DNA of 64,000 nt. Origin: Acidobacteriota bacterium (GTDB lineage Bacteria > Acidobacteriota > Blastocatellia > Pyrinomonadales > Pyrinomonadaceae). The notes below the pieces were generated by a model. The model saw nothing but the letters and a program-made list of their open reading frames with translations, made no database searches and had not been told where the DNA came from. How positions within the stretch are numbered: position 1 is the first letter of the stretch; each line of letters begins with the position of its first letter. The DNA is taken from the NCBI GenBank assembly GCA_032159825.1, contig JAVHWL010000011.1:84003-148002 (forward strand), written 5' to 3'. Shown here in pieces: positions 1 through 62,952 of the stretch. Both the position numbers and the translations under genes were made by a program.

Positions 1-2545
1 AGACGAAGTAGCCTCGCTGCTGAAATTCCAACGAGCGGAAAAAGGCTGAGGAGACTTCAATGCGGTCACAACTGGTGTCTCCGGGCTTGCAGTTATTCAA
101 GGTGTCCTGCCAGCCCTGATAACCGGCAGGCTCAGGCTCACGGTTTAGAAAATCATGATAATGCTGGCGGACGAAAACCGGCGTCTGGTTAATCGGATTT
201 GAAGATGTAGGCGTGCTGTCGTTGTCTATAATCGTCACAGTCGCCGCGCCTGCGCTACCTAGATTAGCTCCCTTCGGATTGTTGAGCATTAGATTCACCG
301 TCTCGTTGCCTTCAACGAAACCATCTTCCGTCACAAGCAAGGTCAGCGTTTTGCTTGTCTCACCATTAGCGAAGTGAAGCGTACCGACCAACGTGGTGAA
401 ATCGTTGCGCTCGGAAGCCGTGCCGCCGCTCGCAACGTAATCTACGAAGACTTCGCCGTTAGTGCCTCCCGAACGAGTAACGGTGATGAAGATACTCCCG
501 TCGCCCTCTCCGACGTTGTAGGCTGCCGCGCCGAATTGCAATGTCTGCTGTTGAGCCGTAAAGGTCGCTGTGAATGTTGTGTTGCTTGAGGGCGTAGAGA
601 TGTTATGAACGCTCGCGCCTGCATCCGACCAGGATGAGAATTGATAAACCACCCCGCCGACCGTTTGCGGCGAGACGGCTCCAAGAGAGCGTGTCATCCC
701 GACGACGCCGACGATCTGTGTTGGAGTGGCGATGGGCTGACCGTCCAGGGTCAGTTGAAGTCCCGCAGGGTTTGTCGCCAGCGTAATCGTAGATGTGCGT
801 GGGTTGATGTCGCGGAAAGATGTATGTGTCAACCCGGCGGAATCTTTCACCGTCAGATGGATGCGATACCAGACGTTGGCCGAAGTCTCGCCCGATGTCG
901 GTATAGTGAAGCTTCCGCTCTGAGAGCCGGTTGTCGCCGGGATGAAGGGATGAACGTGCGTGTCGTGATGAAAATCAACCTGCCAGGTAAAAGCGCTTGC
1001 CGGAAGATTGCCGTCCTCCGGGTCAGTCCCTGTGCCTGAGTAATTGATCGTATCTCCTGCGCTGTAGAGCGTGCCCGCTGCCGGTGTGGTGATGCTGCCG
1101 ACAGGCGGTTGATTCGCCGTCACCGTCAAAGTCGCCTCGCTGCTCGTGGCGTTTCCGAAAGAATTTGAAACGATAACGCGGAACTTCGCGCCGTTATCGG
1201 TTAACGAAACGGACGCCAGCATGTAACTCTGAGAGTTAGCCCCCTGGATGTCGCTGCCGTTTCTCTGCCATTGATAATTAAGCTGCGGCGTGCCGGAGGC
1301 CGCGACGCTAAAGGTCACAGGCTTCCCTTCCGAGATGGTCTGGCTCGCTGGCTGCGTGGTGATAGAGGGAGCTTGATTGCCAGTAAATTGAATTCTGAAA
1401 ACTGCGCCGCTGCCTCTGGCTAGATAGTAGAGATTACCGTCCGGGCCGACTTGTAAATCAACCGGGGAAGAAATGCCGGAGGCAAAGTCCGTCGCGGTGT
1501 TGTTCGCAGGGTCGAATAGCCTGACCCAGCCGCTGCAAAAATCCGCGAAGAAATATTTGCCGACGTAGCTGCTCGGAAACTGGTTAACCGAAGGGTTGTA
1601 GAATGTGCCTCCGGTAATCGCACAGCCGACAGTCGGCCCCGTCCCGTGACCATACGAGAAGAGCGGGCTTCGATAGCTTGGATTAGTAGTCGGGCCTTCC
1701 GTGTTGGGCCAGCCGTAATTCGATCCGGCAATGCCGTCGTCAATCTCTTCCCAGGTGTCTTGCCCGACATCATTGATGAACATCCGGCGCGTCTGGGGCT
1801 GAAAGGCGAATGTATAAGGGTTGCGTAAACCAAGCGCCCAGATAGCGCGGTTGACGCCAGTCGCGGTGTTGAAGAAAGGATTGTCCGACGGGATAGTGCC
1901 GTCCGAGTTGATGCGCAGGACTTTGCCTAGCAGGTTAGTGAGCGTTTGCGAGTTTGAGCTGTTGCCGTTTTCACCGACAGCGATATAGAGTTTGCCGTCT
2001 TCGCCAAAATGCATCGCTCCGCCGTTATGGTTCGACGCGCTGCTCAAATTATTCAACTCAAGGATGACAACCTCGCTATTTGCCGCTGCGACATCGCCGC
2101 TTGCTGTAAAGCGACTCACGCGGTTGTGTACGGGCGCTGCATTGACTGTGTAGTAAACGTAAACGAACTGGTTCGTCGTGAAATTAGGGTCAAACGCGAT
2201 GCCAAGCAGACCGCGCTCTCCCGTCTGGTCGGTGTTGACACTTAAAAACGGAGTTGTTAAGAGCGCGCCGTTCTTGATAACACGAAGCTGCCCTCCTTGC
2301 TGGCAGACGAATAATCTGCCGTCGGGCGCAAATGCCATCGCCGTCGGGTTGGTGAGTCCGGTCGCAACCTGCGTCTCGGCAAAACCCGCAGGAAGCGTTG
2401 CCGCACGCAAAGAAAGCCCGGAAGAGATGAAAACAAGAAACGCGCCGCTAAGAAACCGGATTGTTTTTATTAACCGGGAGGGCTGCTGTAATCGTCCAAC
2501 TCCAATGCGACTCGATTGCTCCGAAATCTCAATAAACAACTTCAT
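1..2545 (-). CDS. Secreted PQQ-dependent (soluble glucose/sorbosone) dehydrogenase-like beta-propeller protein with Ig-like, Calx-beta-like and DUF4214-like C-terminal modules. The 3' end lies outside the window.
   Basis: Absent from the ORF track because it runs off the window edge. My own minus-strand translation from the ATG at 2545 gives MKLFIEISEQ..., a signal-like segment, then GLLGIAFDPNF, NHNGGAMHFGEDGKLY and GLRNPYTFAF. Later come Ig-like repeats and GETSKTLTLLVTEDGFVEGNETV. The frame stays open to position 1. Confidence 0.75.
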   Translation of the reverse strand, partial: MKLFIEISEQSSRIGVGRLQQPSRLIKTIRFLSGAFLVFISSGLSLRAATLPAGFAETQVATGLTNPTAMAFAPDGRLFVCQQGGQLRVIKNGALLTTPFLSVNTDQTGERGLLGIAFDPNFTTNQFVYVYYTVNAAPVHNRVSRFTASGDVAAANSEVVILELNNLSSASNHNGGAMHFGEDGKLYIAVGENGNSSNSQTLTNLLGKVLRINSDGTIPSDNPFFNTATGVNRAIWALGLRNPYTFAFQPQTRRMFINDVGQDTWEEIDDGIAGSNYGWPNTEGPTTNPSYRSPLFSYGHGTGPTVGCAITGGTFYNPSVNQFPSSYVGKYFFADFCSGWVRLFDPANNTATDFASGISSPVDLQVGPDGNLYYLARGSGAVFRIQFTGNQAPSITTQPASQTISEGKPVTFSVAASGTPQLNYQWQRNGSDIQGANSQSYMLASVSLTDNGAKFRVIVSNSFGNATSSEATLTVTANQPPVGSITTPAAGTLYSAGDTINYSGTGTDPEDGNLPASAFTWQVDFHHDTHVHPFIPATTGSQSGSFTIPTSGETSANVWYRIHLTVKDSAGLTHTSFRDINPRTSTITLATNPAGLQLTLDGQPIATPTQIVGVVGMTRSLGAVSPQTVGGVVYQFSSWSDAGASVHNISTPSSNTTFTATFTAQQQTLQFGAAAYNVGEGDGSIFITVTRSGGTNGEVFVDYVASGGTASERNDFTTLVGTLHFANGETSKTLTLLVTEDGFVEGNETVNLMLNNPKGANLGSAGAATVTIIDNDSTPTSSNPINQTPVFVRQHYHDFLNREPEPAGYQGWQDTLNNCKPGDTSCDRIEVSSAFFRSLEFQQRGYFV

Positions 2546-2704: not shown

Positions 2705-2762
2705 GGAACGATGAATGATGAATAAAAGACGCTTGCTTTTCGGCTCATCATTCATCGCTCGG
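2705..2762. repeat. Heptad-arm hairpin, GATGAAY family
   Basis: Arm gaacgatgaatgatga (2707-2722) pairs with tcatcattcatcgctc (2745-2760). It is paralogous to the hairpins at 33196 and 33749. The right arm encodes the last codons and stop of the chelatase N-half gene. Confidence 0.7.
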
Positions 2763-5016
2763 CGTTCATCGTTTCAAAGTTTGCCGCACGCGCCGTTTCT
2801 TCAATCGCACCAAACAACTGTTCGCGCTCATGCTCGGCGGTCGCCTGCCTGTAAGCGGTCAACAACTCTTTGAGCGAGGCAAGCTCTTTGTAGAGACCTG
2901 CGCTTTCAATCGGCGGGGTCAGATAGGAGATCAACTCGGCGTAAGACCTGCGCTTGGCGATAGAGCCTTCCGATGGATTGTTGACGCTGTAGATGTAGAT
3001 GTTCGGTAGCTCTCCGATCAAGCGATCCGGCCAGCACTCGCCGGACAACCCCACCTGCTTGCCCGGCATAAACTCCGTCGCGCCGTGTGTCCCGATATGC
3101 ACGACCGCATCTGCCCGGAAAACTTTTTCGAGGTAAGTATAAAGCGCCATGAACCCGTGATGCGGCGCGCCGCTTCGCGCCATCAGGAGTCTCATCGGAT
3201 CGCCCTCATAGCCGAAAGTTGGTTGCACTCCGAGAAAGATGTTTCCAAGCCGGATGCCCTGAATTAAAAGCTCTCCGCCGAAAGAATTGATGCTACCGGG
3301 CGCGCTGCCCCACTCTTCTTCAATCTCCTCGACAAAGGGACACAGCCGCCTGTACTCGTCAACGCTCATCCGGTAAGCGACGTTTGCAGTCGCGCCGAAA
3401 CTCTCTGAGTTTCCGCCAAGCAGTAGCTCTCGCAACTCATCCGCGCTTGCTGGAACTTCAACTTCATAGCCGTCGCGTTTCAAAGTCCGCAGCATCTCCC
3501 ATGCGCTTGGAAAGACATCAAGATCGGCAGCCGTGCCGATGTTGCCCTTGTTCGGCGGGAAACAGAAAACCAGCAACGCAAGGCGCACATCCACGCGCGC
3601 CGCTGTCTGCAAATGATTCCAACGCTTCAAGCGTCGCGCCAGCCGGTGACAGCGATCTTCCAGGGGCAAGGGTTCGCATTCGCCCGCGCGCAAGCCGCCG
3701 TAAACGAAAGGCTCCGTCGCTCCGTCCAACTCAGGGATGGCGATCTGCATTCCCGCCTGCACAGGATTCAATCCAATCCCTGACTCCTGCCACGACTCAA
3801 CCGTCTGCATATCCAGACTGACGGCTGAGCGAAACGGGCGATTCAACTCACGTAAGAATTTCGCAGCCGCCTCACTATCATTCATCGCAGGCCCGCCAAC
3901 GAAACTGAACCCCGTCAGCGACACCACCTGACTCACACGCGATTTTATTTCAGTCTCAAACTCCCCTTCCTTCTTACCGCCAACTGCCAACTGCCTACTG
4001 CCTATTTCCTTCCGCCCATCGCCTTCAATAAAAAACTTCCCGCATGCCTCGCGGTTGTCCATCAAGGTCGAGATAGCAGGCAGCACAGCAAGTCCTTCGG
4101 CTTCAATCGCACGAATCAGCCCGTCGTAATGTTTTCGCGTGTTGCTCACGATCTGCGGGCGCATCAACAGCAAGCCGATTGTCCTGGCCGGGTCAAGCGT
4201 CTGTTGACCGTTCTTATTGCTTCGACGCTCATACCATTTTCGATATGCAGCGAACGACTCAAAAAGCGTTGGCGCATCCGGGTGATAAATCGCTACCGCA
4301 GGCATCGTCTCCGGCGGCGGGACTTTAATCTCAGCCCGCGTCACACGTTCATCCGGCACATACTGCTGGATCGCATAGAGCACCATCGAGCGAATATTGG
4401 CGGGTGTCGGTTGCAGGAAATAACAGAAGAGATAAAGATAATTCTTGATGTCTCGCAAGCGTCCTGCGCCCGGAACGAAACGCAACAAGCCTGGCAAGCG
4501 ATCAACGAGCTTCAGATACTGTGTGTGATTCCGACTTTTCTTAGCGCGATGAGCACGCGCCTGCTCGCCCATCCACGCGCCAATCCTGCCAGCAAGATGA
4601 TGCGCTCGCTTCTCACCCTCCTGACCCTTTGCCTCGTCTACGCCTTCAAGCGTCTCCGCGCCATCGCTTTTCTTGCCGCCGAACATCCGCCCGAAGTCCA
4701 GCTTCCCCATCCGCGTCCGCCGCATCAGGTCTGGCATACAGTTGATAACAACCACCGCACGATGCCGCGCTTTGTATCGCTCCAGAGAATCCAGCAATCT
4801 CGTCGCATTCTCTCCATCCATCACGTGAATCACGAACACCACATCCGCCCCGCTCAAGTCCCCCTCAACATCCCGCCACTCACCCTCCGTTAACGCCGCG
4901 CCGAAGTTGTACGCCGCAACCCGCAGGTCGAGCGCATACTCACGATTGATCTCGCGCTCCGCCTGCTTGAGAGGAGCGAGAAGACTAGACCCGACATAGA
5001 GAATCGTAACGTTCAT
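2752..5016 (-). CDS. ChlH/BchH/CobN-type chelatase large subunit, N-terminal fragment (about two-thirds of the protein), intact ORF
   Basis: 754 aa. MPDLMRRTRMGKLDFG, FPPNKGNIGTAADLDVF, GVQPTFGYEGDPMRLL, VHIGTHGATEFMPGKQ and NPSEGSIAKRRSYAELISYLTPP match the conserved ChlH/CobN blocks. The ORF stops in the linker just before the LxPxGLHxxG block. Confidence 0.85.
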   Translation of the reverse strand: MNVTILYVGSSLLAPLKQAEREINREYALDLRVAAYNFGAALTEGEWRDVEGDLSGADVVFVIHVMDGENATRLLDSLERYKARHRAVVVINCMPDLMRRTRMGKLDFGRMFGGKKSDGAETLEGVDEAKGQEGEKRAHHLAGRIGAWMGEQARAHRAKKSRNHTQYLKLVDRLPGLLRFVPGAGRLRDIKNYLYLFCYFLQPTPANIRSMVLYAIQQYVPDERVTRAEIKVPPPETMPAVAIYHPDAPTLFESFAAYRKWYERRSNKNGQQTLDPARTIGLLLMRPQIVSNTRKHYDGLIRAIEAEGLAVLPAISTLMDNREACGKFFIEGDGRKEIGSRQLAVGGKKEGEFETEIKSRVSQVVSLTGFSFVGGPAMNDSEAAAKFLRELNRPFRSAVSLDMQTVESWQESGIGLNPVQAGMQIAIPELDGATEPFVYGGLRAGECEPLPLEDRCHRLARRLKRWNHLQTAARVDVRLALLVFCFPPNKGNIGTAADLDVFPSAWEMLRTLKRDGYEVEVPASADELRELLLGGNSESFGATANVAYRMSVDEYRRLCPFVEEIEEEWGSAPGSINSFGGELLIQGIRLGNIFLGVQPTFGYEGDPMRLLMARSGAPHHGFMALYTYLEKVFRADAVVHIGTHGATEFMPGKQVGLSGECWPDRLIGELPNIYIYSVNNPSEGSIAKRRSYAELISYLTPPIESAGLYKELASLKELLTAYRQATAEHEREQLFGAIEETARAANFETMNAER
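3975..4002. repeat. In-frame run of four tandem heptamers (GGCAGTW on the coding strand) inside the chelatase N-half CDS
   Basis: Plus strand reads taccgcc aactgcc aactgcc tactgcc and encodes ...IGSRQLAVGG.... The same heptamer family occurs at 61602-61622. Confidence 0.7.
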
Positions 5017-5030
5017 TCGGCTCGTTTCAA

Positions 5031-5813
5031 TTACGACTTGGCCGCTTCCTTTTTATTTGCCTTCGACATGAGAATTTCAATTGCCTGGAGGATACGCTTT
5101 GCGAGACCCTGCGCTTCTTCGTCATACCTTTCAGGTTCGACGGGTTTGACCTGAATTGCTTGCTCCATCTTACCCGGCAACTCAGAAAGGTTTATTTGAC
5201 TGCTCAAGAGGAGTGGAATAATCGGGATTTTTCTTTCGAGAGTAGCCGCCAGCTCACGCCTCATCCAGGTACTCATAGATTCTGAGATGATAAACACGGC
5301 AACATCCGCTTGGCTAAGTAACTGGCTGATAGAAACCTCCCAGGGCAGCCCGCTCGTTTCGTTCCCCATCAGCAGGACGCGAGCGTCATGCGCGGCCAAG
5401 GCCCTGCTCAAGGCATTCGCAAATGGCGCGTCCGCAATGTTGCAGGAAAAAAAGATAAACCGAGGCGAACTTCCGGCTCCCGCTCCGCCACCTGCGGCCT
5501 CCGATGTCTCATCATCTTGCTTATCTTCTTCGGCAGAGGATTTTAGTTCGAGCCAGCGCTTGAGGCTTCTTTTAGAGCCATCCTTGTGGACGACCTGAGC
5601 GCGAATCAGGAATTCGCCCCAGCCTTCGGAGTCCAAACGAAATTTCGAGCCTCGATCATCAACACGACGAACAGGCTGCGGAAACGAGGGGTGTAAAGTG
5701 TATTCAACATATTCGATTCGATCCAGGGCGTCACTGTCGCCTTCAATCCAGACAGACCATCTCCACCAGTTGTCTTGCTCAGAAGTCGCCTTCTGTTTGA
5801 TGCTGATCCTCAT
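5031..5813 (-). CDS. Prokaryotic YEATS-like (pYEATS) domain fused to a TIR domain
   Basis: 260 aa. Residues 15-78, WWRWSVWIEG...VEYTLHPSFPQPVRRV...FRLDSEGWGEFLIRAQV, match the YEATS signature (LHxSF..P.R, GWGEF.I). An acidic/Gly linker follows. Residues 117-205, RFIFFSCNIADAPFANALSRAL...ADVAVFIISESMSTWMRRELAATLERKIPIIPLLL, match the TIR_2-type pattern (FISY-like start, S.W...E, K.IIP). A strong RBS (aggagaagg) overlaps the upstream stop. Confidence 0.75.
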   Translation of the reverse strand: MRISIKQKATSEQDNWWRWSVWIEGDSDALDRIEYVEYTLHPSFPQPVRRVDDRGSKFRLDSEGWGEFLIRAQVVHKDGSKRSLKRWLELKSSAEEDKQDDETSEAAGGGAGAGSSPRFIFFSCNIADAPFANALSRALAAHDARVLLMGNETSGLPWEVSISQLLSQADVAVFIISESMSTWMRRELAATLERKIPIIPLLLSSQINLSELPGKMEQAIQVKPVEPERYDEEAQGLAKRILQAIEILMSKANKKEAAKS

Positions 5814-5823
5814 TTGCCTTCTC

Positions 5824-6504
5824 CTATATCTGGCTTAACTCAATTTGCACCCATTGCGGTGTGGCGACTGACTGCCATTTCGCGTCTTGCAGCTTGACCT
5901 CAAGCTGGATTATATAGTCATCCCGCACGCCTACCAGATAGACGAACGTTCCACCGGTTTCACGAATGGCCTCCTCGGTTTCGTTCCATTTCGTCCACTT
6001 TTCGGCATAAAACCGGTAACGGCATTTGATTTCACCCTGACTTACGGTGCGCGCCAGATCGGGCGGTAAGATCATCACTTTGAGTGTGCGGCCAATCTCC
6101 CGCTTCCACAGCCCGATAGTATCGGAGAGCCTGAGAAAAGCCGGGAGAGGGTTCTGGCGATCAAAAGGAATGTACTCGTGCGCAGCGTACATGCCGCCAA
6201 CGTCCACATCGGTCTCTATGAGCGCGATAGTGCGCAGCTTATTATCCCGCGCGTAGTTCAACTCTTCCTGCACCCATTGATGGGTTGTATATCTGGTGTT
6301 TGTGATTTTGTCGCGTTGGGTAAGAAGAGCAATCAGCGCGTCCGAATCGGCAATGCGCTCCTTCACGGCTGGCGTGAGCGCGTCACCGCCCAGGTTTTCT
6401 CCGGTAACTGCCGGGACATCGTGGCTTCCAAGCAACTGTTGCACCTGGTTAGCCAACTCACGGTCATTGGGTCTGAAAGCGAATGCAAGGAATATTCTTT
6501 TCAT
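5824..6504 (-). CDS. TIR-like domain protein with an uncharacterised beta-rich C-terminal domain
   Basis: 226 aa. The N-terminal 115 aa, IFLAFAFRPNDRELANQVQQLL...SDALIALLTQRD...THQWVQEELNYARDNKLRTIALIE, follow the TIR_2/TIR-like flavodoxin-fold pattern. The C-terminal 100 aa (KVMILPP...CRYRFYAEKWTKW...FVYLVGVRDDYIIQLEVKL) are strand-rich and match no family I recognise. Confidence 0.65.
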   Translation of the reverse strand: MKRIFLAFAFRPNDRELANQVQQLLGSHDVPAVTGENLGGDALTPAVKERIADSDALIALLTQRDKITNTRYTTHQWVQEELNYARDNKLRTIALIETDVDVGGMYAAHEYIPFDRQNPLPAFLRLSDTIGLWKREIGRTLKVMILPPDLARTVSQGEIKCRYRFYAEKWTKWNETEEAIRETGGTFVYLVGVRDDYIIQLEVKLQDAKWQSVATPQWVQIELSQI

Positions 6505-6632
6505 AGTTCGGCTCCGTTGAGGGTTAGGTGAAAGCAGAGCGGGGTTTGCCTGCGGCCATAGGCTAATCGCTGAAAAGAGCAGTTAGCTAGTAAGAGCGAT
6601 ATTCCAGAGCAAGGCAGCTATCATTTCACAGG

Positions 6633-8387
6633 TTAATCAATCCCTTCAAGCTGATCTTCCAGCCCGGCGAAAATTTCTCGCAACCGCTCAAGGGCGTAAG
6701 TCTCCACAGCCCAGAAGCCGCGCCCGTGCGCTTCCAGCAGACGCCCGACGAGCGAACGCGCCGAATGTGGATTAAGCTCACGCAGGCGGTCGAGCATCTC
6801 TTTGTCAAAGACGAAGGTGTTCGCAACCTCCGTATAGACCCAATCATCAACCGCGTCTGCGGTCGCACTCCAGCCGAAGGTGTTGCTGATGTGGCTTTCG
6901 ATTTCGGCTACACCGCGAAAGCCGTGCTTGAGCATCCCTTCGTACCATTTCGGATTGAGCGTCTTGGCGCGCGTTTCCAGGCGCACAGTCTCTTCGAGCG
7001 AGCGTATTTTGGAATCGCGCGAGAGCGTGTCTGACAGATAAACGGCTGGGCGCACGCGCGCTCGATTCTCAACCGCCTTCGTGACGCCGCCCAGGTATTC
7101 AAAGTAATGATCCACGTCCGTGATGCCTATCTCGAACGTGTCTATGTTTTGATACGTAGCTTCGACCTTCGAGAGAGCGCGCTCCATCGCATGGCGCGCT
7201 TCGCGTCCTTCGACCGCTCTGCCCTCGGCGTCGCGCCCGTAAGCGAAACACTTGCGCGTGACGAAAAGATCGCCGAGCGTATCGTCCTGCTCCCACTGCG
7301 AATCCATCACCATGAAGTTGACGTTCGTGCCGTAGTTGCCCGGCGCGTTTGAGAAGACGCGCAAGGCCGCCTCGTCAAAGAGGCATCCGTCCTGTTTCAT
7401 CTGCTCATCAATGTTGCCCCGCACATAATTCATCTCCGGCGATTCGTCGAGTACGGCGACGGCGCGGACGGCTTTGTCCAGAAGGAGAATCGTCGCGCCG
7501 AAGAGATCGCGGAAAATTCCTGAAACCGTCATCACGACATCAATGCGCGGGCGTCCCAGCTTTTCGAGCGGGATTATTTCAACTCCGGTCGCGCGGTTCA
7601 AACTATCGCGCACGGGGCGCACGCCCAAAAGCCACAGAGCTTGCGCGACGCCTTCGCCCTGCGTCTTGATGTTGTCCAATCCCCAGAGCACTAAGGCCAT
7701 CGCACGCGGATATGTGCCATGTTCCGAGAGGTGTCGTTCGAGCAAACTGCTGACGACTCGCTCGGCTCGCGCGTATGCAACACGGGAAGGAACCAGGTAG
7801 GGGTTGACGGCGTGCGTGTTTCTCCCTGTCGGTAGAATGTCAGGATTCTGCACGATGTCCGCGCCCGGCCCAGGCTCTATATATTCGCCTCGCAAAGCGC
7901 GCGTCAGACTCTCAAGCTCGCCGTTGGTCGCCAACTGATCGCAGATTCTTGAGAGCAGGGAGAAAATGTTGCGCGAGGCTTCCCTCTTCACACGCGCAGT
8001 CGCTTCCAACCAGAGAGACGCAGCCTCCGCACCCTGCTTGATGAAAAGCTCTATCGCCGCATGGACAATCTCGTCAACGCGCTCGCGTTCCGACAATCGC
8101 TCAACATTCTCTTTACCGGCACGGAGCAGTTCAGTGTATCCGTTGAAACCTGAGCCTTCCGCAACCAGGTCGGGCAAAGCTCGCGCGTTCGCTTCGGGCC
8201 TGTCAAACGACGCTACCATCCTCAGCATGTCAACACGCGCCGCTTCCTCCGGCACACGACCGAAGACGTGCAAGCCCGTCGGTATCAGGCGCTGCTCAAT
8301 CTCCACCACCTGCTCGTAAAGCTCAAGCACGCGGCGGTCGCGCTCCTTCGACGTGAGCGTTTCAATCGTTGAGTTTTCTTCGCTCAC
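6633..8387 (-). CDS. ChlH/BchH/CobN-type chelatase large subunit, C-terminal fragment, intact ORF
   Basis: 584 aa. The GTG start overlaps the upstream TGA (GTGA). RLIPTGLHVFG, EYIEPGPGADIVQNPDILPTGRN, LWGLDNIKTQGEG, GRPRIDVVMTVSGIFRD, LNPKWYEGML and EAHGRGFW match the C-terminal third of ChlH/CobN. It begins exactly where the N-half (2752-5016) ends. Confidence 0.85.
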   Translation of the reverse strand: MSEENSTIETLTSKERDRRVLELYEQVVEIEQRLIPTGLHVFGRVPEEAARVDMLRMVASFDRPEANARALPDLVAEGSGFNGYTELLRAGKENVERLSERERVDEIVHAAIELFIKQGAEAASLWLEATARVKREASRNIFSLLSRICDQLATNGELESLTRALRGEYIEPGPGADIVQNPDILPTGRNTHAVNPYLVPSRVAYARAERVVSSLLERHLSEHGTYPRAMALVLWGLDNIKTQGEGVAQALWLLGVRPVRDSLNRATGVEIIPLEKLGRPRIDVVMTVSGIFRDLFGATILLLDKAVRAVAVLDESPEMNYVRGNIDEQMKQDGCLFDEAALRVFSNAPGNYGTNVNFMVMDSQWEQDDTLGDLFVTRKCFAYGRDAEGRAVEGREARHAMERALSKVEATYQNIDTFEIGITDVDHYFEYLGGVTKAVENRARVRPAVYLSDTLSRDSKIRSLEETVRLETRAKTLNPKWYEGMLKHGFRGVAEIESHISNTFGWSATADAVDDWVYTEVANTFVFDKEMLDRLRELNPHSARSLVGRLLEAHGRGFWAVETYALERLREIFAGLEDQLEGID

Positions 8388-10531
8388 AATACTTTATCTA
8401 CTGCGCTTCCAAGTTGAACGTAACGCGCGCCGATCTGGTCGGCCAGTTTCTGTCCTTCACCGCTTGAAGTGAAACGGTTCTGCGTATCAACTACAATTTT
8501 CGTCACACTCGATTGCTGCGCTGCCAGACCAAGCAGGCCAAGCTCCTCTTCAATTAACTGTCGGCGTGTGCCTTGATTCTGCGCCCTCTCGGTTCGCAGC
8601 GAAACATTAGCGCGGCCATCCGTGAAGAGCAGGAGGACGATTCGCTCTGCACCCTGACGCGCTGCGCGTTCAGCCAATTCGAGCGAGCGTGCCAGACCTG
8701 CGGCAAGAGGCGTTGCGCCGCCGACGCTCAACTCATCAAGCAATCGCCTGGCGCGCCATACACTCGCGCTCGGCGGCAGAAGCACTTCAGCATTTTGTCC
8801 GCGAAAGCTCACCAGCGCCACTCGATCACGCCTGATGTAAGACTGCTCAAGCAAACGCACGAGCGCGCCCTTCGCCTGCGCGATTCTATTGAGCGCCATG
8901 CTCCCGGATGTATCAATGGCGAAAATGAAAAGCGTGCCCGCCTTACGCTTGAATCGCTTGTAGCGGAGAGCGTCCGCAAGGATGGGGGCCGGGGAAGAAG
9001 GGCGGCCTGTTGCAGGCTTCGCAGCTTTTTTCACACCGATCCCCGGCCACCGACACCCGACTCCCCTCTCCTGTATCGCTGCTCTCAAGGTCGCATCAAG
9101 AGCGATTCTCGCGCCGGGTGTTTTGGTAGCTGTGGCGCGGACGTAGCGACCATGTAGGGCGCTTTCGGAAGTCCGGCGAGAGGCTGTGGAGCGTTGCCTT
9201 GAATGGTTACGCTCGATCTGTTTTGGATACTTGAGAGGATTCGAGTCGAAGGCATCATCAGGCAAGCGGGCTTCAAGCGCGGGAGGCGCTGTGCGTTCGA
9301 GTCCACCATTGCTCGCGCCTTCCGGGTCTTCGCCAGTTCGTTTGCCTGCAACGCCATTACCACCTGCGCTGCCCTGTGATGAAGATGTGGGCGGCCTATT
9401 TTGTTCATGCTTGTCTTGGGACTGCTCAGTCTCTTCATCAAGCGGGGCTGAAGGAAAAAGCTTGTCGAGGCGTTGTTCGATGCGAGAGCTTCCGCCAGCC
9501 TGCTCTAAAGGATCGCGGCGCAGGCGATGTCTGAGCGCCATCGTCGCCACTCGCCGGATGTCTGTGGCTGAAACTTCTTTGCGACCTTCAAAGGCAGCGA
9601 GAGCGCGTGCGGCGCGGGAGATGGTTAGCTCCCCGCGATGCCCGTCAACCTTGAGTTGCCCGCAGAGTTCGGCGATGCTGCGCAGGAGTTCGCCAGAGAG
9701 TTTTACCGCATTTAGATTCTTGCGTGCGCGCACGAGCCGACGACGCAAGCTCTCTTGCTCTTTCTCCTGAAGGGAGCGAAAACCATCAGGGTCGCGCTCA
9801 AAACTTTCGCGTTGCTCGACGATCCGCACACGCTCATCTAAATCATCAACGGTCTTTACCTCAACGTGTAGTCCGAAACGGTCGAGCAGTTGCGGGCGAA
9901 GCTCCCCTTCTTCCGGGTTGCCGGAGCCGACCAGCACGAAGCGCGACGGATGCTCAATTGAAATTCCCTCACGCTCAACCACGTTTCGCCCTGTCACCGC
10001 TACGTCGAGCAAAAGGTCAATCAAGTGATCTTCGAGCAGGTTCACTTCGTCAATGTAGAGGAAGCCACGATGAGAGCGCGCAAGCAGTCCGGGTTCAAAA
10101 ACCTTAACGCCTTCATGAAGCGCGCGTTCGATGTCTATTGTGCCGCAGACACGATCCTCGGTCGCGCCCAGAGGTAGATTAACTACGTGTACAGCCGAAC
10201 GCTCGCGCGGAAGTTTTTCATCCAGCACGAGACGCGCGTGGCAATCATCGCAAAGATTCATCTCATCGGCAGGGTCGCAGCCGTAGAGACAATCACGCAC
10301 GCGCGCAATGTGCGGCAGAAGGTCTGCGAGAGCGCGCACCGCTGTTGATTTCCCCGTGCCGCGATGCCCCATAATCAGCACGCCGCCGATTGACGGGTCT
10401 ATCACGTTGAGCAGCAGCGCGAGTTTCATCTCCTCCTGCCCGACGATTGCAGCGAATGGATAGACTGAAGGCCGTTTGCGGCGAAGCGTTTGATTATTCT
10501 TTGGCGCGATGTCTGCGCGGCGTTCCTTCAT
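8384..10531 (-). CDS. Chelatase ATPase subunit, ChlI/BchI AAA+ module fused to a ChlD-type vWA domain
   Basis: 715 aa. Contains [12 protein letters not shown], Walker [10 protein letters not shown], a Cys-rich CLYGCDP..CDDC insert and Walker [12 protein letters not shown] Pro/Ser/Gly-rich linker leads to a C-terminal vWA domain with MIDAS DTSGS. Confidence 0.85.
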
Positions 10532-11552: not shown

Positions 11553-12545
11553 TTAAGGCTCGATAGCCATTCGCAGGACGTTTGACATCGGCTGCCTGTC
11601 AATCTTGCCGTCTTTGGTGATGACGATGAGCTGACCGTTTTCCACCGTCACACGACGCACCGTCGTCATATAACGCTCGACTCTCATCCCGTCTCTCGTC
11701 TCTATGATAAGACGCGGCCCAGCAGCAGGCTCGACCGTTGGAGCAGGCTCGGCTGGTGTCGTAGTTCGCCTCGCTGTTGTTCCAGGTCGCGTGCGCGTTG
11801 TGCGCGGAGTCGTTGTGCGCGCGGACGGAGTGCGTGTTCGCCTGGTGCGCGGCGTTCGAGGCTTTGGCGGCGCGGGCTTTGTGGCTTCGGCTGTTGCCGG
11901 AGTCTCAGCCGGTGTCGGCGTTTCAGACGAAGGGGTCGCCGGAGTTTCTGTCGCGGGCGGTGTGGTTGCTGGCGGCTCAGGCTCTTCTATTCGCGCGCCG
12001 GTTGCCGTGACGCGCCTTCCGCTCTTGCTGGTAGATGAAACCGTCGGGACAACAGGCTCCACGTCAGGAACGTCACTGCTGATCGGCTCAAACGCCCCGT
12101 CGAAACGAATGCGAAAGCTGCCTTCATTATCGTTCGGCGTGCGCGCTTCGACGCGCAGAATCAAAGCCTCGCGTGTCTTCAAGTAGATGGTCTTTGAGCC
12201 GCTCGACGACGTTCCGACGGCGTACATGCTGACCTTGGCAAGCGGGCGCAGAGTGGCCGCCGTAAAGACATCCACATCGCCTTCCAGATTCTTGCTCTCG
12301 ACGCTAACGTTGAGATCGCCGGACGTACCCGTGAAGGAGTAGAAGTACCTGGTCGGGCGCGGGTCGCCCAAATCTCTCGGCGCGATTGCCCCGCTGATTT
12401 CGCTTGAGCGAACGAGAGTTGGAAACTCCATGTCGGTTGATTGCGCCGCTGCACTTATGCCCAGGAGAAACAACAAGGCGAGCGTACTCAAAGGCGCGAT
12501 CAATCTTTTCTGATGTTTGAGAGGAGCGTGGACTATCTTCATCAA
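11553..12545 (-). CDS. Secreted protein with a PPC-like N-terminal domain, a Pro/Thr/Arg-rich low-complexity linker and a small C-terminal domain
   Basis: Has a signal peptide (LSTLALLFLLGISAAAQ). The body is beta-rich with a DVDVF-type motif, followed by a long PTPRTRRTRTP tract. Confidence 0.55.
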   Translation of the reverse strand: MMKIVHAPLKHQKRLIAPLSTLALLFLLGISAAAQSTDMEFPTLVRSSEISGAIAPRDLGDPRPTRYFYSFTGTSGDLNVSVESKNLEGDVDVFTAATLRPLAKVSMYAVGTSSSGSKTIYLKTREALILRVEARTPNDNEGSFRIRFDGAFEPISSDVPDVEPVVPTVSSTSKSGRRVTATGARIEEPEPPATTPPATETPATPSSETPTPAETPATAEATKPAPPKPRTPRTRRTRTPSARTTTPRTTRTRPGTTARRTTTPAEPAPTVEPAAGPRLIIETRDGMRVERYMTTVRRVTVENGQLIVITKDGKIDRQPMSNVLRMAIEP

Positions 12546-13544: not shown

Positions 13545-15929
13545 TTATCGTGTGGTAAGCACAGAGCTAACGCCGATAAGAACGAAGAGGATGATGAGGA
13601 GAGGCAAAATAATTAAAGGCAATCTCGATACGGTTCGATTTACTTCGCCTTCATAAAAATCCGCGATTCTTCCCAGAGATGCGTCCAGACAACCGGTTTG
13701 CTCGCCAATCTCAACCGATACGCTGGCTATGGTTGGAAACACTTCGGTCATTGGCGCAGAAAAAGTCTCGCCGCGCTCCACGCCTGATCTGATCTTCTCA
13801 ATCGCTTCGGCGAAAACTGAATTGCCGACCATCTTCGCAGTGATGTCCAGAGAAGCAAGGATCGGCACACCTGACGAGAGCAGGGTTGCGAGGATGCGCC
13901 CAAAGCGTGCGGTAGCATGCTTACGTAGCAACGGGCCGACGAATGGCAAGCGCAACAGCAGAACATCTTTTTGTCTGTGCCCACGACTTGTTTTGCTATA
14001 CACGCCTAGCGCCAGCAACGCCGCGACGATGGCAGCCAGGAAAATCACGCCGCCTGTGCTGCCGAGGAATGATGCCGTAGCTGCGCCTACACTTGTCCAA
14101 AAGCGCAGATACCAGTTCAGCCCGCCCGCATTGCCCTGCGCGTTGTGTAAAGCGGCGGTGATCGAGAGCATCAGGATAACCAATAAGAGGGCAAGCGCCG
14201 AGAGCGGATACAATATCGCCAGCCAGATTTTTCGCCGCAGGCTGATGCTTTTTTCCAGAGCCGTATGGAGGCGTGACAGCACACGGTCCACAATCCCGCC
14301 CGTTTCGCCCGCCTCGACCATATTAACGTAAAACTCGTCGAAAACTTCCGGGTGGTGCTTCATCGCCGCTGCCAGGGTTGAGCCTTGGCCGACATCTGAA
14401 ATGACTTGATCGAGAACCTGCTTGAAGTATCTGTTCTTCTGCTCCTGGGCAAGCACTTCGAGAGATGATACGAGAGGGATGCCTGCTTCAACCATATATG
14501 AAAACCAACCCGTGAAGCTCACCAAATCACGCAGGCTGACTTTCTTCCGCCCCGTGCCGGAAGCGAAGAGAGATGATTCGGGACGTTCCTCACGAAAAGA
14601 GGTCAGGATAATTTGCTCGCGCCGCAGGAGCATTCTCAAGGCTTCACTACTTTCAGCTATGCGCTCGCCAGCGATGAGTTCGCCGATTCTGTTACGACCC
14701 TTATAATGATAATGCCTGTGGAATATTTTCTTCTTCTTTTTCCTGGCATCTTTAACCCGCAAGGCCCCGACCAGTTTTTTCTCAGCCGCCGAAGAAGAGA
14801 GATTAACCGCCAGAAACGGAGCATCGCTGCCACGCAAAGCGAGGCCGACTGCGACAGGCATCTCCGACCCGATCTCCGAGAGGCGCTCAGAGCTGAAGCG
14901 TCGCTCGTCGTACTTGATACGACGAAACGGGTCAAGCGGCTCAACCGGTATCATGAGCCGATGAGAAAGATTTTCTCTCAGTCCCTTGAGCCTGGAGCCT
15001 CCGCCGGAAATCAATATCTTTCCAACGCTCGTTTCCTCATCCGTTGAAATCGCGCTGTAGAAGTCCAGGCTCTTTTGAATTTCGAGCGCGAGATTTTCTG
15101 TGGTTGCTTCAGTCAGCTTCTCAAAGTCTCCTTCCAGTGCCAGGCGTTTAGCGATGACCTCTATCACCTCATTGATTTCCGTCCCTACCGTTTCAAGCTC
15201 ATCAGCCAGGCCAAGCTTGGCTGCCTCTGCCTGCTCGAACGTGAGACCCAACTCTTTACTTATTTGATCCGTATATTGGTCGCCCCCCATCGAGGCATCA
15301 TGGGTAAATGCTAAACGATTCCCTTTCATGATATGGATAATCATCAGAGAAGCGCCGATGTGAACCAACGCTACCAAAGAATCATCTGAAGGCTGGTAGT
15401 TAAACGTGTAGCAGTTCTGTAGAGCCAGAGCACAGCAGTCTATGATGTCAGCCCGTTTGCCCGCGAGTTGTAGGGTGTGCTCCAGATTCTGCACTCTTAT
15501 CTCCCTACAGATAGCGATCAAGACCTTGATTGAATACTCATCTGAATCAATGACCTGGTAGCCGAGCCGCACGTCCGACATATCGAAGGGGCAATACTCC
15601 TCCGCGTGCCAGTCAATAGATTCCCTCAACTCTTCTTCCGACATCGGCGGGACTTCAATAGTCTTGAGGATGACGGAATTGCCACTGACGCCGGATGCTA
15701 TGTTCCGCGTCGTTAGGTGATGGTCGCCGAAGAGTTTTGAAATAGCCCTGGCGGACTCCGTGTGGTCTAAAATCTGCCCCTCTTCTATTGTGCCGCGCGC
15801 GAGCGGCTCAACCCCTAACCCGGTCAAGGTGAGCTTGTCGTTTTTGCCCGACAACTCAACCGCCTTGACGGAGCTTGCGCCTACGTCCAAGCCGACGAAT
15901 CTTCTCTTGTGGAATATTCCCTTAAACAT
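13545..15929 (-). CDS. PilM-like actin-fold ATPase fused to a full PilC/GspF-type platform protein
   Basis: 794 aa. The N-terminal 350 aa (FVGLDVGASSVKAVEL..., ISGGGSRLKGL, PVAVGLALRG) match PilM. After a KKKKK junction come a PilC-type N-terminus (YKGRNRIGELIAGERIAESSEALRMLLRREQI) and two T2SS-F domains with three TM segments. Confidence 0.75.
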   Translation of the reverse strand: MFKGIFHKRRFVGLDVGASSVKAVELSGKNDKLTLTGLGVEPLARGTIEEGQILDHTESARAISKLFGDHHLTTRNIASGVSGNSVILKTIEVPPMSEEELRESIDWHAEEYCPFDMSDVRLGYQVIDSDEYSIKVLIAICREIRVQNLEHTLQLAGKRADIIDCCALALQNCYTFNYQPSDDSLVALVHIGASLMIIHIMKGNRLAFTHDASMGGDQYTDQISKELGLTFEQAEAAKLGLADELETVGTEINEVIEVIAKRLALEGDFEKLTEATTENLALEIQKSLDFYSAISTDEETSVGKILISGGGSRLKGLRENLSHRLMIPVEPLDPFRRIKYDERRFSSERLSEIGSEMPVAVGLALRGSDAPFLAVNLSSSAAEKKLVGALRVKDARKKKKKIFHRHYHYKGRNRIGELIAGERIAESSEALRMLLRREQIILTSFREERPESSLFASGTGRKKVSLRDLVSFTGWFSYMVEAGIPLVSSLEVLAQEQKNRYFKQVLDQVISDVGQGSTLAAAMKHHPEVFDEFYVNMVEAGETGGIVDRVLSRLHTALEKSISLRRKIWLAILYPLSALALLLVILMLSITAALHNAQGNAGGLNWYLRFWTSVGAATASFLGSTGGVIFLAAIVAALLALGVYSKTSRGHRQKDVLLLRLPFVGPLLRKHATARFGRILATLLSSGVPILASLDITAKMVGNSVFAEAIEKIRSGVERGETFSAPMTEVFPTIASVSVEIGEQTGCLDASLGRIADFYEGEVNRTVSRLPLIILPLLIILFVLIGVSSVLTTR

Positions 15930-16286: not shown

Positions 16287-16373
16287 TGGTGGGGATGGAG
16301 AGACTCGAACTCTCAAGGGTTGCCCCACACGGCCCTCAACCGTGCGCGTATACCAATTCCGCCACATCCCCGC
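16287..16373 (-). tRNA. leuU: tRNA-Leu (anticodon GAG), class II with a long variable arm, CCA encoded
   Basis: The reverse complement is gcggggatgtggcggaattggtatacgcgcacggTTGAGGGccgtg...ccatccccacca. The anticodon loop is UUGAGGG. It lies directly downstream of secG, as the secG-leuU pair does in E. coli. Confidence 0.9.
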
Positions 16374-26826: not shown

Positions 26827-28257
26827 ATGTTCTCTCGTCCCAAGAGTCGAACGCGGTTAGTGCTGGCGATGCTGGCGGGCATTGTGCTGCTCGCGGGTCT
26901 CTTCGCAGTCGCTCTATTCATTCTTGCGCCGGATGCGGCTTCGGCGCGTGGGCCGGTCCTGCTCACAGTCTTCATCATCATTCTCGTCGTCAGTCTTCTT
27001 TCCGTCACCCTGCTCTTGCGCCGCCTGCTCAGACCTTACAGGCAGTTGGTCGGCGAGGCGGAGCGCGCTCCCGTCGCGGCACGCTCGAATAAAGGGCGCG
27101 ATGAGGGACAGTTTGTGCTTGAGACTTTCAAGTCAGTCGTCGCGCAGTTGCAGGCGCAGCAGCGGGAGCTTGAGGCGTTGAGCGCAGAGGCCAGCCGACG
27201 CGCGGCTTCGGCAGAAAAGTTCAGCGAGCGAATCGTCGCCAGTGTTCCGTCAGGTCTTCTGGCTTTCGACGCGAGCGGGCGTGCGACTGTGGTCAACGCT
27301 CCGGCGCGCGCGCTTGTTGAAGCCAACGGTCAAGCCGAAGGTCGGAGCGTTCGTGAGTTGCTTGGAGCTGCGCCCGATCTGGCGGAGATGGTCGAGCGTT
27401 GTTTGCAGACGGGAGAGGTTTACAGGCGCGAAGAGGTGATGGCGAACGGCGCAAACGGGCAGGTGCGGCGATTGGGCGCAACCGTTGCTCCGATTGATCC
27501 CGCTCCAGACCAGACAGAGCGCGGCGCACTCTGTCTCGTTACGGACTTGACGGAGGTCTCGCAACTGCGTGAGCAGGTCGCGCTCAAGAATAATCTGGAG
27601 AGCCTGGGCGAGATGTCCGCCGGGCTTGCTCACGAATTCAAGAATGCGCTGGCGACGTTGCACGGCTACGCGCAACTGATGCAGAACCTCAAACCGGGCG
27701 AGAGCGGGCAGACGGCTTCAAGCGCGTTGCTTCAGGAAGTGCGTAACCTTTCAGAGATGGTGACAGCCTTTCTCAACTTCGCGCGCCCGCAGCCGCTCGA
27801 CCTGGCGGATGTGTCCTTGCGCGAGCTAATCGAAGATTGCGCGAAGGAGTTACAGGCGCTTTACGAGGAGCGGCGCGTTGAGCTAATCATCGCGGGCGAC
27901 TTCTCGGACGTGCGCGCGGACGAGCGCATGCTGCGTCAGGCACTGCTCAATCTCTTGCGGAACGCTGCCGAAGCAGTTAGCGAAGAAGATTCGCGGCGGC
28001 GCGTTACGGTGCGCGGCACAAGCAACCGCGATGCATCTGGAAAAGTCTGGACGGCAATCGAGATTCAGGATACAGGAGAGGGTATCCGGCCCAATGATCT
28101 GCAACGCATCTTCATCCCCTTCTTCACCACGAAATCGAAAGGTCATGGAGTCGGCCTCGCCCTCGCGCACCGCGTCGTCACAGATCACGGCGGCACACTC
28201 GCGGCAGCCAATGCTCCTGACGGCGGCGCACTTTTTACGATTAGATTACCGGAGTAA
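26827..28257 (+). CDS. Membrane sensor histidine kinase (PAS, HisKA, HATPase)
   Basis: Two N-terminal TM segments, H-box LAHEFKNALATL, N-box LLNLLRNAAEA and G-boxes DTGEGI / GHGVGL. Confidence 0.85.
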   Translation: MFSRPKSRTRLVLAMLAGIVLLAGLFAVALFILAPDAASARGPVLLTVFIIILVVSLLSVTLLLRRLLRPYRQLVGEAERAPVAARSNKGRDEGQFVLETFKSVVAQLQAQQRELEALSAEASRRAASAEKFSERIVASVPSGLLAFDASGRATVVNAPARALVEANGQAEGRSVRELLGAAPDLAEMVERCLQTGEVYRREEVMANGANGQVRRLGATVAPIDPAPDQTERGALCLVTDLTEVSQLREQVALKNNLESLGEMSAGLAHEFKNALATLHGYAQLMQNLKPGESGQTASSALLQEVRNLSEMVTAFLNFARPQPLDLADVSLRELIEDCAKELQALYEERRVELIIAGDFSDVRADERMLRQALLNLLRNAAEAVSEEDSRRRVTVRGTSNRDASGKVWTAIEIQDTGEGIRPNDLQRIFIPFFTTKSKGHGVGLALAHRVVTDHGGTLAAANAPDGGALFTIRLPE

Positions 28258-33114: not shown

Positions 33115-33189
33115 TGGAGCGGGAGACGAGGCTCGAACTCGCGACCCCCTGGATGGGAACCAGGTGCTCTACCACTGAGCTACACCCGC
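33115..33189 (-). tRNA. tRNA-Gly (anticodon CCC), CCA encoded
   Basis: The reverse complement is gcgggtgtagctcagtggtagagcacctggTTCCCATccagggggtcgcgagttcgagcctcgtctcccgctcca. There is one U:U mismatch in the acceptor stem. Confidence 0.85.
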
Positions 33190-62391: not shown

Positions 62392-62467
62392 CTCCTAGTG
62401 CCTTTCCGTTGAAGTCTGAGGTGGAAAATCTAGCATGCTCTTTGTGAGTCAAAAACTGTCTTGCAAT

Positions 62468-62952
62468 TTGAGAGCAGGTCTGTAAGCCGAATTCTGTTCT
62501 CCGGTTTCCCGGAGCGGCGATCATTCATCTAGCCCAACCGTCGCCGGTTGGATCGAGCGACCTACCCGGAGGTCGTAGCATGTTTTTGAAAAAACACGCT
62601 TCGGGCGGGCAGCCCTTGTTGACGCCTCCCTATTTGGTCTTGCACTGCGAGGAGTTTGCCTGGCCGACGATGTTACCACCGACGCCGGTGCGCTCTTACT
62701 TTAAGCCCACAAGGGGCCGCACCGTTTCATCCATCACCCGCAACCATCACGCCTCGAAAAGCGCAATAGCCCGCTGGCTGGTCTATTTTCTGTTGCACTT
62801 GTCGTCATCAGGTAAGACGATCAGCAACTTAATGCCAGCCGTTTCTCGCCCGATGCCCAGCCGTTAGCTGGCTCGCTGCCCTGTAGTGTTCGGACTTTCC
62901 TCTCCTTCAACCCCGAAAGGTTTGAAGCAGCGACCGCCCGACCTGCTCTCTT
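62468..62952 (-). ncRNA. rnpB: RNase P RNA, bacterial type A
   Basis: The minus strand reads gagagcaggtcgggcggtcgc...GAGGAAAGTCCGaacacTACAGGGCAG...GTGCAACAGAAAA...GGTAACA...ACAGAATTCGGCTTACAGACCTGCTCTC. The P1 ends pair. Ends are approximate. Confidence 0.88.

Follow-up and report, generated by a model that had tools for sequence, protein, structure and literature searches.

The DNA studied here, called the window throughout, is a 64-kb stretch of contig JAVHWL010000011.1 from an acidobacterium of the family Pyrinomonadaceae. Its minus strand carries a 1.5-kb cassette of two genes, A and B, in which a small TIR protein is coupled to a protein that bears a pYEATS domain and a TIR domain of its own. 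We show here that these genes form a real and mobile unit, and we argue that the unit probably acts in conflict with phages. The TAG stop codon of A (5824-5826) and the ATG of B (5811-5813) are separated by 10 nucleotides (nt); the junction reads ...ATA TAG GAGAAGGCAA ATG, and an AGGAG-type Shine-Dalgarno element overlaps the A stop codon. A first-pass annotation of this DNA had reported two open reading frames (ORFs) 10 nt apart, with the ribosome-binding site of the second overlapping the stop of the first, and its coordinates, the spacing and the overlap were confirmed. The ORF pair is not due to chance, because both proteins have dozens of full-length homologues, 56 for A (40-96% identity, nearly all 225-238 amino acids (aa) long) and 25 for B. 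PADLOC and NCBIfam hold no model that matches A or B, and the classification check with PADLOC that had been suggested beforehand thus returned nothing for either protein. In the spacer upstream of A (6505-6632) the minus strand showed no consensus promoter or terminator, and no such signal delimits the cassette. All feature coordinates, given as positions of the window, are collected in Table 1.

The N-terminal domain of A had been read as a TIR domain from sequence, and structure prediction now bears this out. In the AlphaFold2 (AF2) model, for which 55 homologues were available (predicted local distance difference test score (pLDDT) 90.4, predicted template modelling score 0.80), residues 1-137 adopt a TIR-type alpha/beta arrangement and residues 138-226 a beta-sandwich. 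Comparison of the N-terminal domain with the PDB by Foldseek returned the TIR domains of SARM1, SPARTA TIR-APAZ, SfSTING-TIR, RPS4 and MyD88, all with a probability of 1.0. The top Foldseek match of A was an NAD kinase with a root-mean-square deviation (rmsd) of 17.9 Å, which we treated as a spurious match across two domains. As modelled, the N-terminal domain of A is confirmed to have a TIR fold. In addition, hhalign aligns the TIR of A with that of B at 96% probability, placing E81 of A opposite E187 of B, and by this alignment the two domains are homologous.

Conservation narrows down the likely active site. Among 44 A-like proteins, whose overall identity falls as low as 26%, the residues D14, G35, G40, T62, R64, T74, H75, W77, V78, E81, G104 and S212 are invariant. 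The first-pass annotation had proposed Glu80 or Glu81 as the catalytic residue; since position 80 varies between D, E and G in the same proteins and position 81 is always E, the candidate resolves to Glu81 and Glu80 drops out. The motif W77-V-Q-E-E81 corresponds to the W-x-x-x-E helix motif of enzymatic TIRs, which makes E81 the candidate catalytic glutamate of A. In enzymatic TIRs the Glu of this motif is the catalytic residue, and the bacterial, plant and SARM1 TIRs that bear it hydrolyse or cyclise NAD+.

The C-terminal domain of A had been described as strand-rich and unassignable. The first part of that description holds, as the AF2 model contains seven strands and one helix in a topology consistent with FN3, and the second can be replaced by a tentative FN3-like assignment. 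No sequence match to the domain was found in Pfam, including fn3, or in the PDB. Searching a profile of the domain against 1.84 billion representative proteins returned 187 relatives, nearly all of them 225-240 aa long with the domain at about residues 138-228 and a fixed layout of TIR plus domain. Outside this family the profile matches only FN3 repeats in large multi-FN3 surface proteins, namely three proteins with library-wide E values of 1e-8 to 2e-7 that derive from summed repeats, single repeats being weak. The alignment to these repeats follows the pattern Y-x-V-R-Y-R..W-T-x-W...G-L...Y-x-V-x-V, and because of the repeat matches and this pattern we call the domain FN3-like, each single-repeat match being weak. 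A second YEATS-like domain was considered for this region and rejected, hhalign giving only 0.5% probability against pYEATS. Among the 187 relatives no case of the domain without a TIR was seen, bar weak generic FN3-repeat matches. Rare layouts with the A-type domain are a TIR-nSTAND1-FN3-like protein (P0313, 676 aa), a version of A with an extra TIR (P0210, 415 aa) and a TIR-TIR-FN3-like protein (P0263, 375 aa).

Protein B is readily assigned, and its earlier reading as a YEATS domain followed by a TIR with a candidate Glu187 is well supported. It scores 80.6 bits against the Pfam pYEATS family PF20305 (cut-off 26.9, E=8e-23, residues 17-88), 43.8 bits against the eukaryotic YEATS family PF03366 (cut-off 22, E=3e-11) and 44.5 bits against TIR_2 (cut-off 28, residues 120-215). 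The AF2 model of B (pLDDT 81.8) consists of a YEATS-type Ig fold, a disordered linker, a TIR and a long C-terminal helix. When this model was searched with Foldseek, the top 50 PDB matches were all eukaryotic YEATS domains, with Yaf9, GAS41, Taf14 and AF9 at E values of about 3e-7. The pYEATS profile aligns to the segment 'LHDTYPNPVR...GWGEF' of yeast Yaf9. It is these two loops that, in AF9, Yaf9 and Taf14, make up the aromatic pocket for the acyl-amide of a modified lysine. The pocket residues H41, S/T43, F44, G64, W65, G66 and F68 are invariant or near-invariant across 47 partner proteins, and the pYEATS domain of B appears to keep an intact predicted reader pocket. The likeness to the eukaryotic acyl-lysine readers (AF9, ENL, GAS41, Yaf9 and Taf14) thus extends from the fold to the pocket loops, LH-x-[ST]-[FY] and G-W-G-x-F as in Yaf9. 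In contrast to those readers, pYEATS has no histone context and is fused or coupled to a TIR.

In the second TIR, the profile segment 'sswmkrE' aligns to 'SVWCVRE' of RPS4 and to 'KNWTEYE' of a bacterial TIR (7uxr). No other profile reached these structures; PDB sequence searches with the TIR of B alone and with the C-domain profile of A gave nothing useful. The link of E81 of A to the glutamate of RPS4 and 7uxr is made through its alignment to E187 of B. Of the 25 fused pYEATS-TIR partners, 19 have E and four have D at position 187. The linker of B varies in length and sequence across the alignment of homologues, and the C-terminal helix is conserved among close Pyrinomonadaceae homologues only.

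The two genes belong together well beyond this genome. In a scan of one genome per species across 185,579 species, the A family was found at 47 loci, and in 44 of them a pYEATS ORF follows the A-like gene directly, which answers the test of co-conservation that had been set beforehand. Of the three unpaired loci, one lies at a contig end, one is a gene fragment, and in the third, a Geobacter island, A follows a patatin gene. The pair occurs in Acidobacteriota, Proteobacteria, Nitrospirota, Chloroflexota, Desulfobacterota, Planctomycetota, Bacteroidota and Gemmatimonadota. The 47 loci of the A family include copies from Nitrosomonas, Gallionella and Steroidobacteraceae in the Gamma- and Betaproteobacteria, Chitinophagaceae, Flavobacteriaceae and Saprospiraceae in the Bacteroidota, and also Nitrospira, Anaerolineales and other Chloroflexota, Geobacter, Desulfobacteraceae, Planctomycetota and Gemmatimonadaceae. 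One copy is archaeal, located in a metagenome-assembled genome (MAG) of Methanothrix sp. (JBAQXX010000036.1; locus L004:10001-11582). Its A protein is 52% identical to that of the window, about as close as the A of another Pyrinomonadaceae member (locus L001, 56%), which indicates, at the level of sequence, horizontal transfer across domains. In 43 of 46 loci the partner start lies -4 or +1 to +6 nt from the A stop. This spacing is a signature of translational coupling, from which a stoichiometric complex of the two proteins may be inferred. Altogether, the pair is a real unit, mobile and patchily distributed across domains of life.

The first-pass annotation had taken the presence of two TIR domains as the defining feature of the cassette, and this did not survive the wider comparison. 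In closer relatives (A at 40-76% identity) the partner is a pYEATS-TIR protein of 230-296 aa, and in a distant subclass (A at 26-37% identity, mostly from Bacteroidota and Chloroflexota) it is a pYEATS of about 100 aa that stands alone. Because 22 of the 47 partners are of this stand-alone kind, the second TIR is optional, which leaves TIR-FN3 plus pYEATS as the invariant core.

In the window the cassette is surrounded by chelatase genes in an unexpected arrangement. In the order of transcription, the minus strand carries a BchI-BchD fusion, the C-terminal half of a chelatase H subunit (H_C), gene A, gene B and the N-terminal half of the H subunit (H_N), the last of which begins 14 nt past the B stop. 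The neighbours had been correctly named as chelatase subunits, but it had been missed that two of them are the halves of one split, order-swapped H gene. Orthologues of H_C form more than 120 protein clusters of 584-590 aa at 76% identity or above, and H_C lies upstream of H_N in all 69 informative Pyrinomonadaceae loci, that is, those with both halves visible. The break falls near the middle of the CobN model, at about position 540/549 of 1090. The split, order-swapped H subunit is native to Pyrinomonadaceae, and the large subunit presumably assembles from two polypeptides. We can rule out that insertion of the cassette split the gene, given that the division into C-half and N-half is present without an insert in most relatives. 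Also ruled out is a reading of BchI-D and H as a MoxR-vWA conflict NTPase with TIR effectors, as the BchI and BchD equivalog scores lie over their cut-offs and the chelatase locus is conserved without TIR genes. The fusion scores 670 bits against TIGR02442 ('putative cobaltochelatase'), which is under the cut-off of that model, and its stop overlaps the GTG start of H_C by 4 nt. The split BchH-like enzyme occurs in non-phototrophic Pyrinomonadaceae.

In about 57 of the 69 loci H_C and H_N abut, with a gap of 2-254 nt or an overlap, and 12 of the 69 hold 370-2130 nt of cargo at the H_C/H_N junction: a 125-aa PDDEXK_3 gene (nine loci), an IS110 transposase, a DUF2059 gene and a VapBC-like pair. 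The PDDEXK_3 cargo, of the 'GxxExxY' type, is 125-134 aa long and was seen at the chelatase junction in at least ten loci, and the VapBC cargo consists of an 82-aa protein plus a PIN protein. Not one of the 80 metagenomic chelatase loci contained the TIR pair. In the genomes most closely related to the window, H_C is 89-93% identical and the synteny from DUF6445 to the GSDH/Calx gene is the same. This last gene, a GSDH/Ig/Calx-beta gene that runs off the start of the window (1-2545, minus strand) and for that reason does not appear in the ORF list, is 90% identical to its orthologue in L141, and synteny around the cassette is therefore full. At the junction these relatives hold a DUF2059 gene (L140 and L141), a PDDEXK_3 gene (L142) or VapBC (L058). 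DNA homology to them ends at the H_C stop and restarts about 15 nt before the H_N ATG, at the ribosome-binding site of H_N. The G+C fraction of the cassette is 0.50-0.55 and that of the flanks 0.55-0.60, a difference of 3-6 points.

The pair is also present at the chelatase junction in more distant Pyrinomonadaceae (L001-L003 and L010). In L001, A is 56% identical to the window copy versus 81% for H_C, and in L010, A is 76% identical versus 72% for H_C. This incongruent divergence of A and its flank suggests exchange and not strict co-descent. No chelatase gene lies near the pair in 43 of the 47 genome loci, the chelatase context being confined to Pyrinomonadaceae, so the pair proved to be independent of chelatase genes, a point on which the first-pass annotation had asked for evidence. 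Because close relatives hold other cargo or nothing at the same junction, the cassette is cargo in a permissive junction hotspot, not a chelatase accessory. A further TIR gene was observed in L057, a 5.5-Mb Pyrinomonadaceae genome with an empty junction, where a 911-aa TIR-TPR gene lies directly downstream of H_N (L057:11087-13822); TIR genes are thus drawn to more than one site of the chelatase locus. The junction is a natural example of a gene-internal insertion hotspot, with VapBC, PDDEXK_3, IS110 and TIR cargo.

The cassette resembles several known TIR-based systems without belonging to any of them. Like Thoeris, it encodes in a compact operon a small stand-alone TIR whose catalytic Glu is conserved, several TIR genes can lie side by side in both, and NAD+-derived chemistry would be expected. 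Unlike Thoeris, it has no ThsA-type gene (SIR2, SLOG or Macro) and its pYEATS partner is absent from Thoeris. The Pfam model ThsB_TIR reached A with E=0.084 and 13.7 bits (cut-off 21.2) and did not match B, PADLOC found no ThsB, and no ThsA effector lies beside the pair, the flanks being the chelatase H halves and the BchI-D fusion, followed by SDR and GSDH/Calx genes. TIR-STING, SPARTA and SARM1-like proteins offer the closest likeness, since SARM1, SPARTA and SfSTING are the best structural matches of the TIR of A. In these systems a sensor drives TIR oligomerisation and NAD+ depletion without any further effector, which is the model we favour for the pair. However, the pair has FN3-like and pYEATS domains in place of STING, APAZ/pAgo or ARM/SAM sensors, its sensor and enzyme are distributed over two proteins, and no cyclic-dinucleotide synthase or Argonaute gene lies beside it. 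Foldseek alignments to TIR-APAZ chains have an rmsd of 19-27 Å over more than 200 columns, and only the TIR therefore superposes; an adjacent Argonaute gene was not found either. For CBASS and Pycsar, PADLOC gave no match for A or B and none of these families occurs in the three flanking genes. Pfam detected no SAVED, STING or cyclase domain, and CAP12-PCTIR_TIR matched neither A nor B.

Taken as a whole, we read the two genes as a self-contained conflict module that moves horizontally and is most likely of an anti-phage, abortive-infection type, and we put the probability of this reading at about 0.62. A would be the constant enzyme, its TIR with the active-site motif T-H-x-W-V-x-[DE]-E being carried on the FN3-like beta-sandwich, and B, translationally coupled to A, would supply the pYEATS reader and a second TIR with a retained catalytic Glu. 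The two proteins would form a complex that stays inactive until the pYEATS pocket, the FN3-like domain or both recognise a trigger, which could be a protein of the phage, an acylated lysine or a small ligand with an amide group. After recognition, the TIRs would assemble into an NAD+-cleaving oligomer. With no separate effector gene nearby in the window, the output would most likely be depletion of NAD+ by the TIRs themselves.

Several points weigh against this reading. We infer NADase activity, complex formation and phage defence alike. Against Pfam TIR_2, A reaches 26.5 bits (E=1e-5) and so stays below the gathering cut-off of 28, and neither the A family profile nor the TIR of A alone found a sequence-level match in the PDB. 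Searches of IMG/VR, the INPHARED phages and the PLSDB plasmids gave no match to A, and no vehicle of mobility was found there. No flanking repeats or integrase were seen, in an analysis that included no repeat search aimed at the cassette edges. Several Pyrinomonadaceae sublineages (L001, L010 and the window) retain the pair at a single chromosomal junction, which is less typical of fast-turnover defence islands. In other genomes, a TPR-S gene upstream, often with a patatin or peptidase effector, means that the pair may be a sub-module there and not autonomous, and the copy in the window could need genes located in other parts of its genome.

This last concern arises from a survey of 50 non-redundant related loci. 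A TPR-S gene (PF20308) stands no more than two genes upstream on the same strand in 22 of them, immediately upstream in 15, and anywhere in the locus in 26. Recurrent neighbours are TIR-nSTAND1-FGE-sulfatase, patatin, CAP12-type TIR, CHAT-TPR-S, SLATT and LRR-Roc-COR-TIR proteins, and the patatin neighbours match PADLOC models of CBASS-type phospholipase effectors. In other places the pair stands alone among housekeeping genes, for example in Methanothrix (L004) and Planctomycetota, and in Anaerolineales it lies alone between the genes for an M16 peptidase and an acyl carrier protein (ACP) synthase (ACPS). The earlier statement that there is no canonical effector thus holds for the window, where a tblastn search of the 64 kb found none of the TPR-S, nSTAND1, patatin, CHAT or SLATT neighbours of the related loci; for the family it fails, TPR-S lying upstream in those 22 loci and often nSTAND1, patatin or CHAT with it. 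By context in other genomes, the pair belongs to the TPR-S/nSTAND conflict systems (Pfam PF20308, PF20703 and PF20305), in whose islands related copies sit, whereas the 64 kb of the window contain neither a STAND NTPase nor a TPR-S gene. The adjacent Pfam numbers of pYEATS (PF20305), TPR-S (PF20308) and nSTAND1 (PF20703) suggest a common origin in curation.

These contexts allow a second explanation, which we regard as possible, albeit rather unlikely: the pair may be a signal-generating or relay sub-module, in which the TIR of A would make an ADP-ribose-derived nucleotide and separate TPR-S- or nSTAND-linked effectors would kill. Patatin, CHAT, trypsin or SLATT-type effectors would then be encoded elsewhere in this genome. 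Besides the frequency of same-strand TPR-S genes upstream, it would account for the patatin, trypsin or CHAT domains on those TPR-S proteins or their neighbours and for the joining of the FN3-like domain to a STAND NTPase in the rare fusion P0313. In addition, a lone small TIR with a reader, as found in the 22 partners without a second TIR, resembles a signal generator more than a depleter. However, homologues of the TPR-S, nSTAND1, patatin, CHAT and SLATT proteins are absent from the window, the pair stands alone in several unrelated contexts, and neither A nor B shows a SLOG, Macro, SAVED or STING-type receptor domain.

The cassette might also be an addiction module of the toxin-antitoxin kind without any role in phage defence, one protein being a constitutively toxic TIR NADase that the pYEATS protein neutralises. 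Such addiction would keep the cassette stable at the chelatase junction. We consider this improbable. A layout of two translationally coupled genes is typical of toxin-antitoxin pairs, the same junction holds VapBC in a 90%-identical relative and small selfish genes (PDDEXK_3, IS110) in others, and the cassette persists at one site in diverged Pyrinomonadaceae. Yet neither A nor B contains a DNA-binding domain of the antitoxin type (RHH, HTH or AbrB-type), and both proteins of the window appear from their sequences to carry active TIRs. The strictly conserved ligand pocket of pYEATS speaks for sensing over simple neutralisation, and the frequent residence in multi-gene conflict islands fits immunity better. 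Finally, a chelatase accessory role, in which the pair would regulate or assemble the split H subunit or tie NAD status to metal insertion, is suggested by five co-oriented genes with short gaps, B ending 14 nt before H_N, and by the same five-gene order in diverged Pyrinomonadaceae MAGs, but it is extremely unlikely and effectively refuted by the distribution of the pair, with H_N directly after H_C in most Pyrinomonadaceae, 0/80 metagenomic chelatase loci holding the pair, unrelated cargo at the same site in the closest relatives and 43/47 pair loci without a chelatase gene nearby.

Table 1. Features of the two-gene cassette and its flanks (positions of the 64-kb window unless a related locus is named)
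Feature	Position	Strand	Description
Gene A	5824-6504	minus	ORF, 226 aa, TIR + FN3-like protein; constant component of the cassette
TIR domain of A	6094-6504	minus	Residues 1-137; Pfam, Foldseek and hhalign
Glu81 codon of A	6262-6264	minus	Within motif T74-H75-x-W77-V78-x-[DE]-E81; codon read from sequence
C-terminal FN3-like beta-sandwich of A	5827-6093	minus	Residues 138-226; AF2 model and profile search
A/B junction	5814-5830	minus	A stop TAG, overlapping AGGAG Shine-Dalgarno element, 10-nt spacer, B ATG
Gene B	5031-5813	minus	ORF, 260 aa, pYEATS-linker-TIR; Pfam pYEATS and TIR_2 both over cut-off
pYEATS domain of B	5538-5813	minus	Residues 1-92; pocket loops L40-H41-x-S43-F44 and G64-W65-G66-x-F68
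Linker of B	5472-5531	minus	Residues 95-114; acidic/Gly-rich, disordered; pLDDT <50
TIR domain of B	5169-5462	minus	Residues ~118-215; TIR_2
Glu187 codon of B	5253-5255	minus	In S-x-W-M-R-R-E-L; codon read from sequence
C-terminal helix of B	5037-5135	minus	Residues 227-259; long, Lys-rich tail; AF2
Spacer from H_C stop to gene A	6505-6632	minus	128 nt; upstream edge of inserted cargo
BchI-BchD fusion	8384-10531	minus	715 aa; over NCBIfam BchI and BchD equivalog cut-offs
Chelatase H C-terminal half (flank, outside module)	6633-8387	minus	584 aa; CobN-Mg_chel model 549-1084 of 1090; NCBIfam BchH 695-1271
Chelatase H N-terminal half (flank, outside module)	2752-5016	minus	754 aa; DUF3479 + CobN-Mg_chel model 3-540
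Junction cargo sites	window 5017-6632; L058:8756-9518; L142:6756-7364; L140:6738-7302; L141:6756-7328; L111:3308-5437		

Elsewhere in the window, an ORF at 26827-28257 is flanked by two convergent pairs of Acido-Lenti-1 RNA motifs (Rfam RF01687; 26538-26720 and 28355-28498), four motifs in all, which fit an acidobacterial origin of the DNA. RNase P RNA class A (62467-62949, 254 bits), tRNA-Leu(GAG) (16287-16371) and tRNA-Gly(CCC) (33115-33189) were also located. On the minus strand, a 794-aa ORF (13545-15929) appears by eye to combine a PilM-type actin-like ATPase N terminus with a PilC/GspF-type polytopic membrane C terminus. A 330-aa protein encoded at 11553-12545 (minus strand) has a signal-like N terminus and a long low-complexity segment rich in Pro, Thr and Arg; its gene is syntenic with an unannotated gene for a protein of about 330 aa in all close relatives (L058 and L140-L142).

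Returning to the conflict module, the pair has received little earlier description. A literature search found no paper on pYEATS with TIR, on prokaryotic YEATS, on TPR-S, or on YEATS in connection with anti-phage activity, and no experimental work. TPR-S/nSTAND conflict systems of multicellular bacteria have been catalogued computationally (Kaur, Burroughs, Iyer, Aravind 2020, PMC7159879); the main text of that article names neither pYEATS nor TPR-S, and the main text of further papers from the Aravind laboratory does not mention YEATS domains or TPR-S. The product name given by JGI to one B homologue is 'pYEATS domain-containing protein involved in immunity'. This name and the Pfam entry are the only descriptions found, which agrees with the expectation that pYEATS-TIR proteins appear in surveys and are uncharacterised: the domain fusion is catalogued, and the unit of TIR-FN3 plus pYEATS is not described in the literature searched. 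The pair is an uncharacterised TIR-based conflict module with a new sensor architecture; TIR-only NADase modules as such are already familiar.

TIR domains are the enzymatic core shared by the innate immunity of bacteria, plants and animals, and to our knowledge each new TIR sensor architecture so far has brought a new trigger or a new signalling nucleotide. Here the TIR is coupled to a YEATS reader with a fully conserved pocket of the acyl-lysine type, in organisms without histones. This raises two testable questions, namely what the ligand of prokaryotic YEATS domains is, and whether the 'chromatin reader' fold was first an immune sensor. Being small, present in at least eight bacterial phyla and one archaeon and, in several contexts, apparently self-contained, the cassette is easy to clone and to test. 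A more specific and speculative proposal, unlikely in our own estimate, is that pYEATS acts as a ligand-gated immune sensor whose pocket reads an infection-made acyl-lysine or an amide-bearing product of the partner TIR (nicotinamide- or ADP-ribose-derived) and thereby switches on NAD+ cleavage, in which case the pair would constitute an undescribed two-protein TIR-FN3/pYEATS system. If this were true, the eukaryotic histone-reader fold would have originated as, or been used as, a receptor of bacterial and archaeal NAD+-based immunity.

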